Below are positions 23,498 through 29,759 of a stretch of DNA of 33,817 nt, piece by piece. The stretch is from a virus, in UHGV virus genome UHGV-2163408; one strand, written 5' to 3'. The notes under the pieces were generated by a model that saw nothing but the letters and a program-made list of their open reading frames with translations, was not told where the DNA came from and did no database searches. The first letter of the stretch is position 1; every line of letters starts with the position of its first letter. Position numbers and translations under genes: made by a program.

Positions 23498-24183
23498 ACA
23501 CTTGCTCCTTTCAGTCCTAACTTAGCTTTAATTTCTGCGATCTTCGCCAGCGCCTGAACACGATTTAGAGGTCTGCCGCCCATGACAGGAAGTTGTTTTA
23601 CTGGTTCAGGTATCGTCTCACCACGGTTAATTCGCGCTGTCATACAGGTCAGTTCATCGGCAGCCTTGCGTCGTAATTCCGCGTCAGTCAGCGCATTGGC
23701 CCGCATGTTCTGGTACAGGTTGGTAACCAGCCAGTAGTGCGCGTTCGATTTCCACGGATAAGACTCTGCATCCGGATACAGGCCTCGCTTCCGGCAATAC
23801 TCGTAAACCATATCAACCAGCTCGCTGACGTTTGGCAGTCCGGCGATAANNNNNNNNNNNNNNNNNNNNNNNNNNNNNNNNNNNNNNNNNNNNNNNNNNN
23901 NNNNNNNNNNNNNNNNNNNNNNNNNNNNNNNNNNNNNNNNNNNNNNNNNNNNNNNNNNNNNNAAAGCCAGAACCCACTGGCGGCGGATTTCGTTCAGTTC
24001 GTTCTGGTCACGGTTAGCCAGACTCGCCGGGAAAGTTGCCAGTAACTGGCTGAACACACCGTTGATGATCTGCGCTACCTGCTGTACCTGCGGCTTTTCG
24101 TCGTACTGTTCCGGCATGTTGTTGGCGATCCGACGCATCTGCTCACGGTCAAAATTAACCATCTGTGCGGCGATGTTTTTCAT
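23494..24183 (-). CDS. P: Replication protein P (helicase loader); interrupted by an assembly gap
   Basis: N- and C-terminal parts match lambda P (MKNIAAQMVNFDREQMRRIANNMPEQYDEK...); 113 N at 23850-23962 lie inside the gene. Confidence 0.8.
   Translation of the reverse strand: MKNIAAQMVNFDREQMRRIANNMPEQYDEKPQVQQVAQIINGVFSQLLATFPASLANRDQNELNEIRRQWVLAXXXXXXXXXXXXXXXXXXXXXXXXXXXXXXXXXXXXXXXIAGLPNVSELVDMVYEYCRKRGLYPDAESYPWKSNAHYWLVTNLYQNMRANALTDAELRRKAADELTCMTARINRGETIPEPVKQLPVMGGRPLNRVQALAKIAEIKAKLGLKGASV
23850..23962. other. Run of 113 ambiguous bases (assembly gap or masked region)
   Basis: Literal n characters in the sequence. Confidence 1.
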
Positions 24184-25079
24184 AAATCCACCCCGTAAAT
24201 CCAGTCAGTGTTTGTCAGGTCGAGTTTTGGTTTGCAGGCTGTCACACCTGCCTGTTGCTTGTTACGGTTGATTTCGAGCTGGGTCCACTTGTCGCGGAGT
24301 TTGGCCGGGCTCAGCACGTTACCGGACCAGAAGTTGTCCTGGCATGCCCAGCGGAACAGTACACACATGTCGCGATGGTTACGTCCGTCACGTTCACGCA
24401 TCAGGCGGATATCGTTAGCCCACCCTGCAAAATTCGGTTTTCTGGCTGATGGCGCGATGGTCTTCACCATGTCAAACATCCATTCTGCGGCGGTCAGGTC
24501 TTCTGCTGTCCCCCACTTGCTGCCGCTCTGAATTGCAGCATCCGGTTTCACCACAGAAAGGTCGTTTTCTGGCTGGTCAGAGGATTCGCCAGAATTCTCT
24601 GACGAATAATCTTTTCTTTTTTCTTTTGTAATAGTGTCTTTTGTGTCCCCCTGTTTTGAGGGATAGCAATCCCCCAATTTGAGGGATGTTTTATCCCTCG
24701 TTTTAGGGGATTTTCCCTCGTTTTGAGGGATACACCATTCTGAGATGTTTTTATTTGGTCCAAACATGCCGCCTTGCTGCTTGATAATATTCATTCTGAC
24801 GAGTTCTAACTTGGCTTCATTGCACCGTTTGACGGGTAACTTTGTAATCTCGCTAAGTTGAGAATCGGTGATTCTGTCCATTGGTTTATTCCATCCATAG
24901 GTTTTACGCAGAATGGCAAGCAGCACTTTAAACTGTCGCTTGGTCAGATCTGCGCCTGAATAAGCCTCAAGCAGCATATTTGATAGTCTGGCGTAACCAT
25001 CATCGAGATCTGCCACATTACGCTCCTGTTTGGCAAAGTTACCTCTGTAGAAGTTGAGTATTTTTGCTGTATTTGTCAT
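24180..25079 (-). CDS. O: Replication initiator O
   Basis: 299 aa; MTNTAKILNFYRGNFAKQERNVADLDDGYARLSNMLLEAYSGADL... matches lambda O; contains the origin iterons. Confidence 0.95.
   Translation of the reverse strand: MTNTAKILNFYRGNFAKQERNVADLDDGYARLSNMLLEAYSGADLTKRQFKVLLAILRKTYGWNKPMDRITDSQLSEITKLPVKRCNEAKLELVRMNIIKQQGGMFGPNKNISEWCIPQNEGKSPKTRDKTSLKLGDCYPSKQGDTKDTITKEKRKDYSSENSGESSDQPENDLSVVKPDAAIQSGSKWGTAEDLTAAEWMFDMVKTIAPSARKPNFAGWANDIRLMRERDGRNHRDMCVLFRWACQDNFWSGNVLSPAKLRDKWTQLEINRNKQQAGVTACKPKLDLTNTDWIYGVDL
24605..24735. other. Lambda-type replication origin: AT-rich segment plus four about 19-bp iterons inside the O gene
   Basis: Four direct copies of the TCCCTC-N-TTTTGAGGGAT type at about 24645-24731, preceded by T-rich 24611-24644. 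Confidence 0.85.
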
Positions 25080-25463: not shown

Positions 25464-25507
25464 TCCCGCATTTCGGCGGGAATGAGGACCATGACTGTTA
25501 AAGAGCG
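25464..25507 (-). promoter_or_regulatory. nutR (boxA CGCTCTTTAACA + boxB hairpin TCCCGCCGAAATGCGGGA)
   Basis: Minus-strand boxA-like element 8 nt after the cro stop, followed by a 6-bp stem hairpin identical to the one upstream of N. Confidence 0.6.
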
Positions 25508-25514
25508 GTGTTAC

Positions 25515-25715
25515 TTATGCAGTTGTTTTTTTGTTGCTTGGGAAGGGCTTTATTTCTTCCGCATAAACGCTTCCATCAGCGTTTATAGTTAAAAAAATAT
25601 TTCGGCCTGCATGAATGGCCTTGTTGATCGCGCTTTGATATACGCCGAGATCTTTAGCCGTCTTGGTTTGACCAAAGCGCATTGCATAATCTTTCAGGGT
25701 TATGCGTTGTTCCAT
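25515..25715 (-). CDS. cro: Cro repressor
   Basis: 66 aa; [38 protein letters not shown]... matches lambda Cro. Confidence 0.95.
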
Positions 25716-25741
25716 ACAACCTCCTTAGTACATGCAATCAT

Positions 25742-25805
25742 TATCACCGCTAGAGGTAAAATAGTCAACACGCACGGTGTTAGATATTTATCCCTTGCGG
25801 TGATA
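25742..25805. promoter_or_regulatory. Right operator OR1-OR2-OR3 with divergent PR and PRM promoters
   Basis: Three 17-bp lambda-type operators: TATCACCGCTAGAGGTA 25742-25758, CAACACGCACGGTGTTA 25766-25782, TATCCCTTGCGGTGATA 25789-25805. Confidence 0.9.
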
Positions 25806-25812
25806 GATTTAA

Positions 25813-26529
<717 letters not shown>

Positions 26530-26595
26530 TATATGTGAAATGCATATATTGATATAAATGCAGCAATATCAAATAGTTAAAAGGTTATATTTTTA

Positions 26596-26976
26596 ATGAA
26601 TGATCTTGATAAGAAAAAGTACGACCAAGTTATTGATTCTGTGAACTTCGCCCTTAGATCGTTGTCAGAGTTATTCGAAGCCCATGGAATGCATGGGATG
26701 TATGATCTAACGAATCCAAGCCTTGATGAGCTAAAATTAGTGTTTACAAGGATGAAAAACGGAGTTGACTCTATTGCTCAAAGCTTTGAGCATATGGTAG
26801 AGACAGCAAAGGATATGGATGCCGCAAGTGCAAGCATAAATGTTATGAACATCAAGCAAGGATTGATGTATGCTGAATCACTATTGCTTGCTGTAGAGAA
26901 ATTAGACTATGATAAATGTGTGGAAGCAAATACGCAGATAAAAACCCACGATCTTCCACCAACCCAATGGCCTTAA
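26596..26976 (+). CDS. Hypothetical AT-rich cargo protein downstream of cI (rexAB position)
   Basis: 126-aa ORF, visibly lower GC than flanking lambda-like DNA; same strand as cI; no TM segment; not recognised. Confidence 0.5.
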   Translation: MNDLDKKKYDQVIDSVNFALRSLSELFEAHGMHGMYDLTNPSLDELKLVFTRMKNGVDSIAQSFEHMVETAKDMDAASASINVMNIKQGLMYAESLLLAVEKLDYDKCVEANTQIKTHDLPPTQWP

Positions 26977-27045
26977 TAGTAAATCAAGATTTCATATAGT
27001 CTATTTGAACTAGGCTAGTACCATAAAATAAACCGAGGAAACGCA

Positions 27046-27147
27046 ATGAAAACCATGTCCACTCTGCACAAAGATGCAATGACCCTGAGATCTCTCATTA
27101 ACGAGATTCTGGCTCGCTCGTCAGCACACACCAAAAAAGCTGCATAA
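27046..27147 (+). CDS. Possible small ORF (33 aa) upstream of the immunity terminator
   Basis: ATG at 27046 with GAGGAAA upstream; MKTMSTLHKDAMTLRSLINEILARSSAHTKKAA; ends 12 nt before a terminator; weak support. Confidence 0.25.
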   Translation: MKTMSTLHKDAMTLRSLINEILARSSAHTKKAA

Positions 27148-27158
27148 TGCCTACATAA

Positions 27159-27181
27159 CCCGGCCTCATCGCCGGGTTTTC
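27159..27181 (+). terminator. Rho-independent terminator ending the cI operon (timm-like)
   Basis: CCCGGC-ctcatc-GCCGGG followed by TTTTCTTTG. Confidence 0.55.
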
Positions 27182-27340
27182 TTTGCCTCACGATCGCCCC
27201 ACCTAAAAACACATAACCAATTGTATTTATTTGAAAATTAATAGATACAACTCACTAAACATCGCAATTCAGATCTCTCGATCACCTTCCCAATCCACAC
27301 AACCCTGCAAAAAATAAATCTATATAAAAAACATACAGAT

Positions 27341-27403
27341 AACCATCTGCGGTGATAAATTATCTCTGGCGGTGTTGACACACATACCACTAGCGGTGAT
27401 ACT
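27341..27403 (+). promoter_or_regulatory. Left operator OL3-OL2-OL1 with PL promoter
   Basis: AACCATCTGCGGTGATA 27341-27357, TATCTCTGGCGGTGTTG 27361-27377, TACCACTAGCGGTGATA 27385-27401; -35 TTGACA 27375-27380, -10 GATACT 27398-27403. Confidence 0.85.
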
Positions 27404-27448
27404 AAACACATCAGCAGGACGCTGGCAGCCAAACGGAACAGATTGGCA

Positions 27449-28103: not shown

Positions 28104-28367
28104 ATGGACGAGAAAATTAAATCATTGAAGCCAGGAATTGTTATCAGAGACATAAGTGGTTATTACGATACAGAGACATATGATATTTTATATGTGCATG
28201 CAGATGGAAAATGTCAGTATTCGAACGACATTTTTAATAATAAAGGCGATGCCGAAATTGCTGCCACCACAGTTAATAAAGAGCTCGTAGCTAACGAGTC
28301 GTGGGATTATTTTATGCCATCATCCACTTCTATGAACTGGAAAGTGGTTTTGTACATTCCATCATAA
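28104..28367 (+). CDS. Hypothetical AT-rich cargo protein between N and cIII
   Basis: 87-aa ORF with GAGGTGA ribosome-binding site; low GC; not recognised. Confidence 0.45.
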   Translation: MDEKIKSLKPGIVIRDISGYYDTETYDILYVHADGKCQYSNDIFNNKGDAEIAATTVNKELVANESWDYFMPSSTSMNWKVVLYIPS

Positions 28368-28433: not shown

Positions 28434-28551
28434 GCATAAACAACAGAATAAACACTGCACTGTGTATTCATTCCAACGAGTGAATACACTGAGCAATGTC
28501 GCTCGTAACTAAACAGGAGCCGACTTGTTCTGATTGTTGGAAATCTTCTTT

Positions 28552-28577
28552 GCCCTCCAGTGTGAGGGCCTTTTTAT
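28552..28577 (+). terminator. Rho-independent terminator-like hairpin upstream of cIII
   Basis: GCCCTC-cagtgt-GAGGGC followed by CTTTTTAT. Confidence 0.5.
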
Positions 28578-28638
28578 ATGCATACCAATAACGCTTCACT
28601 CGAGGCGTTTTTCGTTATGTATAAATAAGGAGCACACC

Positions 28639-28779
28639 ATGCAATATGCCATTGCAGGGTGTCCTGTTGCTGGCTGCCCTTCCGAATCTTTACTTGAACG
28701 AATCACACGTAAATTACGTGATGGATGGAAACGCCTTATCGACATACTTAATCAGCCAGGAGTTCCCAAGAATGGATAA
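28639..28779 (+). CDS. cIII: CIII (FtsH inhibitor, protects cII)
   Basis: AAGGAG ribosome-binding site; MQYAIAGCPVAGCPSESLLERITRKLRDGWKRLIDILNQPGVPKNG matches lambda cIII as recalled, slightly shorter. Confidence 0.85.
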   Translation: MQYAIAGCPVAGCPSESLLERITRKLRDGWKRLIDILNQPGVPKNG

Positions 28780-29078: not shown

Positions 29079-29759
29079 ATGGGAACTGCGACATTAATAC
29101 TCGGTGAGTCTGGCACCGGAAAATCAACCAGCATGAGAAATATCAATCCAGAGGAAGCAATACTTATAAAACCAATAGGCAAGCCGCTACCATTTAAATC
29201 AAAAGACTGGCTTGCATGGGATGCCAGAGCAAAAAAAGGAACCGTAGTTACCACTGACAAATGGGACGTAATAGTTGCTGTAATTAAGCGTGCTCACGAA
29301 TACGGAAAAAGAATCGTTATTGTTGATGACTTCCAGTATGTGATGAGCAATGAGTTTATGCGCCGCTCAGAAGAAAAATCGTTTGATAAATTTACTGAGA
29401 TAGGCCGCCACGCATGGGAGGTGATTAAGGCTGCACAGGATGCACCTGATGACCTGAGAGTCTATTTTCTTGCGCACACAGAAGAAACCCCTATGGGGCG
29501 CGTGAAAATGAAAACTATCGGCAAAATGCTGGACGAGAAAATCACTGTCGAAGGCATGTTTACTATAGTTCTTCGCACCCTTACCCGTGATGACCAGTTC
29601 TTTTTCACCACGAAAAACAACGGTGCAGACACTGTTAAATCCCCAATGGGAATGTTTGATTCCAATGAGATTGATAACGATCTCTCTTTTGTCGATGCCA
29701 CTGTTTGTGATTACTACGGCATCAATAATGTTCATCAAATTAAGGAAAACGCCGCATGA
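29079..29759 (+). CDS. P-loop ATPase, Sak4-like (RecA-fold recombination ATPase) candidate
   Basis: 226 aa; Walker A GESGTGKST at residues 9-17; hydrophobic strand then DD (IVIVDD) consistent with Walker B; size and position fit Sak4-type proteins. Confidence 0.6.
   Translation: MGTATLILGESGTGKSTSMRNINPEEAILIKPIGKPLPFKSKDWLAWDARAKKGTVVTTDKWDVIVAVIKRAHEYGKRIVIVDDFQYVMSNEFMRRSEEKSFDKFTEIGRHAWEVIKAAQDAPDDLRVYFLAHTEETPMGRVKMKTIGKMLDEKITVEGMFTIVLRTLTRDDQFFFTTKNNGADTVKSPMGMFDSNEIDNDLSFVDATVCDYYGINNVHQIKENAA

Follow-up and report, generated by a model that had tools for sequence, protein, structure and literature searches.

The viral genome UHGV-2163408 (33,817 nucleotides, analysed over its full length and referred to below as the window) is a lambdoid prophage in which a two-gene cassette occupies the interval between the repressor gene cI and the immunity terminator Timm, where lambda carries rexA and rexB. 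The first gene encodes an acidic, soluble protein of 126 amino acids (aa) that is predicted to fold as an up-down four-helix bundle (open reading frame ORF126; 26596-26976, plus strand). The second encodes a basic peptide of 33 aa with the tail KKAA-COOH (ORF33; 27046-27147, plus strand). A first-pass annotation of the window had described a single-gene cargo, followed by a possible 33-aa open reading frame (ORF). Both frames are found at these positions, but the cargo can no longer be called single: the comparison with relatives shows that ORF33 is a real, conserved gene and the obligate partner of ORF126, and that the cargo is a two-gene cassette. With respect to function, we tentatively favour a toxin-antitoxin-like, lysogen-expressed and mobile defence pair that has replaced rexAB after cI, a composite reading to which we give somewhat less than an even chance.

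A conserved gene pair between cI and Timm

The coupling of the two genes is strict. In 12 of 12 lineages a small ORF of 33-63 aa follows within 5-85 nt of the large gene, the large protein being 26-85% identical. These lineages represent every relative that could be fetched and include prophages of Escherichia coli, Klebsiella and Pectobacterium, Providencia-/Proteus-type phages, Aeromonas phages and five metagenomic lineages. In nearly all of them a hairpin terminator is found after the small ORF. The sole homologue among 50,697 phage records (Aeromonas phage AsXd-1, 46% identity) also has a 36-aa ORF after the large gene, and the full cassette is present in each of the 32 carrier E. coli genomes at an identity of at least 99.1%. 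Searching 5.8 billion proteins with a profile of the small proteins recovered nothing but the small partners of ORF126-type genes.

Both genes are also under purifying selection. Four enterobacterial copies differ at a proportion of 0.6-0.95 of synonymous sites, which are saturated, while the non-synonymous proportion amounts to 0.09-0.17 in ORF126 and 0.25-0.35 in ORF33. Given that the latter is far below the former, ORF126 and ORF33 are both coding and constrained. Two observations that could be taken for decay of a toxin gene were discarded: the 73-aa 'truncated' homologues are gene-calling artefacts, and the single small ORF with a frameshift belongs to an assembly full of errors. The small gene is easily overlooked. 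In the three E. coli RefSeq records that were inspected (loci L001, L053 and L054) it is left uncalled and only ORF126 is annotated, as 'hypothetical protein' WP_021539111.1.

The borders of the cassette are sharp. The immunity region of the window has the order O, cII and cro on the minus strand, then cI, the cargo, OL/PL and N on the plus strand. According to blastn against lambda, the block with cro, OR and cI (25493-26530) is 96% identical to lambda 38263-37226, and the block with Timm, OL and PL (27155-27422) is 89% identical to lambda 35828-35570. Homology ends exactly at the cI stop codon and restarts exactly at Timm (27155), with no lambda match anywhere in 26531-27154. This break and restart indicate that the 624 bp in between (26531-27154, plus strand) substitute for the 1,397 bp of lambda (37225-35829) that hold rexA and rexB. 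The replacement segment has a GC content of 37.5% against a window mean of 46.9% (standard deviation 3.0); no other 625-nt stretch of the window is poorer in GC, and only 0.1% of all 625-nt windows reach a value as low as 0.375. The lambda-type flanks (cI, OR, OL, PL), the cargo instead of rexA/rexB and the AT-richness had all been noted in the first-pass annotation, and each of these descriptions holds. There is hardly any doubt about the anatomy of the cassette as described here.

Between the two genes lies a spacer of 69 nt (26977-27045, plus strand), in which a strong Shine-Dalgarno sequence (GAGGA) precedes ORF33. Downstream of ORF33 a rho-independent terminator (AACCCGGCCTCATCGCCGGGTT followed by a T-run; 27157-27188, plus strand) corresponds to lambda Timm, as annotated in EF120458-60. 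At the other end, the junction between the cI stop and the cassette holds an inverted repeat of 7 bp (ATATATG-N7-CATATAT; 26530-26550), seen directly in the sequence. It is unchanged behind three different E. coli repressor genes (loci L001, L053 and L054) and could be either a recombination joint or a regulatory site.

The cassette is probably expressed in lysogens, by likeness to cI-rexAB of lambda and cI-bstA of the Salmonella prophage BTP1. The presumed PRM/PRE transcription unit has cI as its upstream gene (25816-26529, plus strand), which encodes a repressor of 237 aa of the lambda immunity type (Pfam HTH_3 and Peptidase_S24) and falls inside the block of 96% identity. The control region OR/PR/PRM (25716-25815, recognised by lambda homology, with a PR-like site at 25768-25740 of the minus strand) presumably supplies the lysogenic transcription that runs through cI and on into the cassette, the position of PRM being deduced from lambda. 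On the plus strand no terminator-like site is found from the cI stop up to Timm. The spacer between cI and ORF126 measures 66 bp; in BTP1, RNA-seq reads cross the 88-bp spacer between cI and bstA (PMC7067206, PMC8585504). The OL operators and the PL promoter (TTGACA-17-GATACT; 27330-27403, plus strand) are directed away from the cassette, to N. Three promoter-like matches (9 of 12 positions) lie upstream of ORF126 and ORF33, and such matches are no commoner than in shuffled sequence; we therefore claim no cassette-internal promoter for the window. In slots that have no upstream repressor gene, the cassette must consequently bring or borrow a promoter.

The amounts of the two products might be regulated as well. 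In the lineages that were read, the Shine-Dalgarno sequence is strong on ORF33 and mostly weak or missing on ORF126. GC-rich hairpins are seen in the spacers of several relatives (L024 6385-6456, L003 6385-6455 and L004 6379-6462), two of them with T-runs; whole-spacer energies are -17.7 kcal/mol for L003 and -19.6 kcal/mol for L024, and the hairpin in the spacer of the window (26977-27045) is weak. In the relatives such a hairpin could serve as an attenuator or as an RNA-processing site that sets the product ratio. Taken together, the skewed ribosome-binding sites and the spacer hairpins point to a controlled ratio of the two products.

Distribution and mobility of the cassette

The interval from cI to N is a documented hotspot for accessory genes, with rexAB and bstA among its occupants (PMC8585504, PMC7067206), and the slot downstream of the repressor in lambdoid prophages has repeatedly been a source of abortive-infection and exclusion systems (RexAB, BstA). 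Other lambda-immunity phages carry unrelated cargo here. In the GenBank records (Degnan 2007), where the cargo ends at Timm in all cases, CL707 has a 301-aa ORF, HK542 two ORFs, and mEp234 hicAB plus one ORF. The cassette has the features of cargo in the cI-N hotspot: its position, its conserved flanks, the unrelated alternatives in the same place, a deviant GC content and mobility. The positional reasoning of the first-pass annotation is thus sound, given that no terminator-like site separates cI from Timm, that the hotspot also accommodates rexAB, bstA and hicAB, and that the cassette occurs in several repressor backgrounds.

The family is rare. Among 1.84 billion proteins ORF126 has only 18 representatives at 50% clustering (43-134 aa, all single-domain). 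The cassette is present in 32 of 5,426 complete E. coli genomes (chromosomal in all cases) and in none of 72,556 plasmids. The family is further found in three of 185,579 species-representative genomes (Providencia huashanensis, Proteus terrae and one metagenome-assembled genome) and in 33 viral contigs of IMG/VR.

All contexts that are long enough to be read are prophage accessory slots or small mobile-element neighbourhoods, and the slot directly after a repressor gene is the commonest. In E. coli the cassette follows a cI-type repressor gene and precedes OL/PL-N, behind at least three repressor alleles, while remaining at least 99% identical. The same cI-type slot is used in an enterobacterial phage with 85% identity and in the Providencia-/Proteus-type phages, in which the large protein is 36-37% identical. 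In a P22-like Pectobacterium prophage the cassette is located after an mnt-like gene on the same strand; in a Klebsiella prophage integrated at tRNA-Pro it is the first gene inside, by the attachment site; in Aeromonas HK97-like phages it lies between int and the tail-fibre genes. A metagenomic phage contig carries it after a head-completion gene, and in one further lineage it follows a helix-turn-helix (HTH) repressor-like gene, with IS1595 elements flanking.

These contexts show that the cassette moves between prophage accessory slots, and some traces of this movement can be pointed out. In L054 (NZ_CP054662.1, approximately 3440-3470) the cassette follows an unrelated repressor gene of the S24 family, and about 25 nt of the 3' end of a lambda-type cI (cagtggcctgaagagacgtttt) remain between the two, a scar which shows that recombination brought the cassette in from a setting with lambda cI. 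Copies of E. coli, Pectobacterium, Klebsiella and Aeromonas share a similar terminator hairpin (AACCCGG-loop-CCGGGTT), so that the mobile unit consists of ORF126, spacer, ORF33 and terminator. The intact transfer among repressor, mnt, attachment-site and head-gene slots then documents cassette exchange with the terminator included. In the IMG/VR contig nearest to Providencia huashanensis (L033, 5357-5698) an extra ORF of 113 aa is seen between cI and the cassette, which indicates that the slot is able to hold stacked cargo.

The two proteins and their possible role

ORF126 has an isoelectric point (pI) of 4.81 and a net charge of -8. The AlphaFold2 model, built from an alignment with distant relatives, is an up-down four-helix bundle of high confidence (predicted local distance difference test, pLDDT, 90.7; predicted template modelling score, pTM, 0.82) with helices at 3-36, 43-71, 74-101 and 105-117. 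(Near-)invariant positions are G31, G34 and P41 at the turn between helices 1 and 2, N85, Q88 and G89 in helix 3, L96, and D104 and C108 at the start of helix 4; a tryptophan near the C-terminus (W125) is present in nearly all family members that reach that far. Transmembrane segments and signal peptides are absent from ORF126 and ORF33 (the highest Kyte-Doolittle mean over 19 residues is 0.81 and 0.25, respectively), and every helix of the two proteins holds 4-10 charged residues.

ORF33 has a pI of 10.45. Its amphipathic helix at approximately residues 5-22 (helical moment) leads into a Ser/Ala/Lys tail of variable length and sequence, and conservation is highest at the very C-terminus. The family ends in KKAA, RKAA, KKVA, QKAA, LKAA, HKVA or KEVA: all 12 lineages have [A/V]-A-COOH, and 11 of them K or Q at -3 or -4. 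Known C-terminal degrons of ClpX are ssrA (...YALAA), RseA(1-108) (...GVAA) and MuA (...RRKKAI) (PMC12723719, PMC8138137). Like ssrA and RseA, the ORF33 family ends in A-A or V-A, and like MuA it has basic residues before the end; the difference is that Leu at -3 of ssrA is replaced by Lys in most members. The C-terminus of ORF33 thus resembles a ClpX degron in its residues. The motif is conspicuous and can be tested.

Homology searches give little direction. In PHROGs the sole outcome for ORF126 is family 16322, 'unknown function'; Pfam and NCBIfam return nothing significant for ORF126 or ORF33 (the best Pfam scores are far under the cut-off), and a profile search of PDB sequences has no match with E < 0.02. 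The description of ORF126 as belonging to no recognised family therefore stands. The checks of a defence role proposed in the first-pass annotation included PADLOC and structure prediction. The search of PADLOC-DB v2 gave no match at E <= 1 for ORF126 or ORF33; structure prediction delivered a confident bundle, for which fold searches list generic helical bundles only and no informative relative. Clear homology to a non-defence protein was looked for as well, and none was found. Two specific candidates for ORF126 were rejected. It is no HEPN-like toxin, as its sole R-x7-H spacing falls outside the R-x4-6-H window and is unconserved in the family alignment, and it is no remote homologue of the slot cargo mEp23403 or HK542c105 (hhalign probability at most 0.2%). 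In the literature, searched by accession, PHROG id and sequence strings and including the searchable DefensePredictor supplements, no mention of the cassette was found. The pair thus appears to represent two protein families without known relatives, carried as repressor-linked prophage cargo of about 0.6 kb with a conserved architecture.

Among known systems RexAB of lambda shares the exact slot (cI stop to Timm), the presumed PRM/PRE unit, the two co-oriented genes and the AT-richness. However, RexA is a cytoplasmic sensor of 279 aa and RexB a polytopic inner-membrane protein of 144 aa, which exclude T4 rII and other phages by depolarising the membrane, against a soluble 126-aa bundle and a 33-aa peptide here. 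Homologues of RexA and of RexB were both tested for and are absent (the Rex family is not found for ORF126 or ORF33 in Pfam or PHROG), from which we conclude that the cassette is not of the RexAB family, although it takes the place of RexAB and might act in a similar way. BstA of BTP1 is likewise encoded directly after the repressor gene and is co-transcribed, with its own rho-independent terminator, and the link of bstA to the repressor locus is conserved across genera (PMC8585504). Nonetheless, BstA is a single large protein with a DNA self-immunity element (aba) and has no homology to the two small proteins of the cassette.

The hicAB genes of mEp234 and HK106 (GenBank EF120460/61) are also two small genes between cI and Timm in lambda-immunity phages, but the cassette has no HicA or HicB homology and no RNase or DNA-binding domain. 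The TomB-Hha (YmoB-YmoA) pair is to be counted among the nearest known systems too. In the immI region of P22 (mnt-orf59a-terminator-sieA), orf59a and sieA are located where the Pectobacterium prophage has the cassette. Here the likeness ends: orf59a, tried as a relative of ORF33, shows no resemblance, and the cassette has no SieA-type match in the PHROG search and no transmembrane segment. With type II toxin-antitoxin modules the cassette shares adjacent co-oriented small genes, constant co-occurrence and the combination of an acidic and a basic product, while it differs from them in having neither homology to a toxin or antitoxin superfamily nor an autoregulatory DNA-binding antitoxin domain.

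The strict coupling, the acid/base pair, the cytoplasmic location of both products, the degron-like tail and the skewed ribosome-binding sites fit a protective module of the toxin-antitoxin or abortive-infection kind, expressed in lysogens, better than the other models that we framed. Such a module might operate as follows. In lysogens one RNA with cI, ORF126 and ORF33 would be transcribed from PRM (and from PRE during establishment) and would stop at Timm. The oppositely charged ORF126 and ORF33 would form a complex, and the [A/V]-A end would make ORF33 a short-lived substrate of ClpXP that needs continuous synthesis, a need in keeping with ribosome-binding sites that are strong for ORF33 and weak for ORF126. 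A superinfecting phage that upsets host expression or proteolysis, or that binds one of the partners, would tip the balance. The freed partner (which might be either one) would then block the growth of the phage or of the host, and the lysogen population would be protected.

How much of this can be maintained differs between its parts. For an anti-phage role of any kind we see a nearly even chance. The first-pass annotation went further and spoke of a 'strong candidate' for a defence function. This was argued from position only, and the word 'strong' does not hold; since no clear homology to a non-defence protein was found, the idea itself survives as an unproven one. The specific mechanism of a ClpXP timer we regard as unlikely. 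Slightly more unlikely still is the full version, a previously unrecognised anti-phage system in which a ClpXP-degraded 33-aa peptide acts as a timer that restrains, or is presented by, a bundle of new fold and in which abortive infection is reached without a known effector domain.

Several observations weigh against the protective pair. There is no homology to a known toxin, antitoxin, Abi or defence protein, the fold searches are generic, and neither partner has a recognisable enzymatic or DNA-binding domain (HTH, ribbon-helix-helix or AbrB). Classical type II modules have an acidic antitoxin, encoded upstream, as the labile partner. Here the degron-like tail belongs to the basic peptide encoded downstream, the reverse of the classical arrangement, and the roles of the two partners are consequently ambiguous. 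Typical toxin-antitoxin families are neither as rare as this one nor missing from plasmids; copies in decay or without a partner, which would betray toxicity, were not seen; and the cassette is missing from the searchable DefensePredictor supplements.

The main rival of the protective pair is a lysogenic-conversion or regulatory module without a defence function, which we consider rather unlikely. As an example, ORF33 could be a competitor or inhibitor of ClpXP, in the way that lambda CIII acts on FtsH, with ORF126 as a chaperone or regulator, and the module would then affect the stability of ClpXP substrates (for instance the phage O protein, RpoS or repressor fragments). This would suit a peptide with an amphipathic helix and a degron-like tail, it agrees with the negative PADLOC result, and similar slots are known to hold non-defence genes (lom, bor, O-antigen modification, umuDC neighbours). 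Moreover, the O protein of the same prophage begins with the ClpX degron of lambda O. On the other hand, neither protein has homology to CIII, to anti-adaptor proteins or to any regulator, and the characterised occupants documented downstream of the repressor are exclusion, abortive-infection or toxin-antitoxin systems. As to the O-like replication protein itself (24180-25079, minus strand), it starts with MTNTAKILNFYRGNF, a near-copy of the N-terminal ClpX degron of lambda O (TNTAKILNFGR); 1.5 kb thus separate the gene of a known ClpXP substrate from that of a peptide whose C-terminal tail is ClpX-like.

A pure addiction module, stabilising the prophage by post-segregational killing and without any anti-phage role, would account for two genes with an acidic and a basic product and one apparently labile partner, and in mEp234 and HK106 the slot is taken by hicAB. 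Even so, it is an improbable explanation: plasmids, on which addiction modules thrive, do not carry the cassette (0 of 72,556), an integrated prophage would gain little from it, and a DNA-binding domain for autoregulation was not detected.

A role of the pair in counter-defence, with the acidic helical protein as an anti-restriction or anti-CRISPR-like inhibitor of host immunity, has a marginally smaller chance. ORF126 is indeed small, acidic and all-helical, and one of its relatives is located within a head-gene cluster, which is where the anti-CRISPR genes of some phages lie. However, the slot is read from lysogenic rather than early lytic promoters (PL being directed away), ORF126, at a net charge of -8, does not come near the values of DNA mimics, the conserved unit contains no gene for an Aca-type HTH regulator, and the obligate basic peptide would be left unexplained.

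Membrane superinfection exclusion, with a block of DNA entry as for SieA, SieB or proteins like HK97 gp15, is very improbable. The kinds of slot are common to P22 sieA and gp15-type accessory genes, but neither a transmembrane segment nor a signal peptide is present, the hydropathy maxima are as low as 0.81 and 0.25, and AlphaFold2 gives a soluble bundle. Finally, that the cargo would be a single gene, with ORF33 as a chance ORF, a 3' untranslated region or a small RNA, might be argued from the fact that RefSeq never calls the 33-aa ORF in E. coli, but is hardly credible and is refuted by the conservation of the small ORF, which has a strong Shine-Dalgarno sequence and retains its peptide features and C-terminus in 12 of 12 lineages despite synonymous saturation, with no Rfam match at ORF33 or elsewhere within the cassette.

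Specialists would expect unknown cargo in this slot, and the location as such is therefore unsurprising; the appeal is in the micro-protein partner with its [A/V]-A end, the new bundle family and the small size. If defensive, the cassette would be a mechanistically new and very small system, and a clean model of micro-protein control over an immune effector. If not, it still is a conserved pair, presumably expressed in lysogens, of which the small gene was missed in three E. coli RefSeq annotations. The latter illustrates how micro-ORFs in prophage accessory slots escape notice.

Other features of the PL operon

Some neighbouring genes of the window deserve mention. A second low-GC ORF (28104-28367, plus strand; 87 aa, local GC content about 0.36) is located between N and cIII in the PL operon. 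It belongs to PHROG 33140 (unknown function), has no match in Pfam, NCBIfam or PADLOC, and is a candidate accessory gene. Further downstream, Rfam finds the lambda cIII thermoregulator element at 28626-28684 on the plus strand (84 bits, E = 4e-20). A cIII-like frame (MQYAIAG...) lies inside the ORF at 28534-28779 and ends in ...PKNG, which presumably is earlier than the end of lambda CIII. The PL operon also includes an ORF of 226 aa that resembles a P-loop ATPase (29079-29759, plus strand; NCBIfam matches are weak), and an ORF annotated as 'ATP-binding protein' is found at the matching position in L054.

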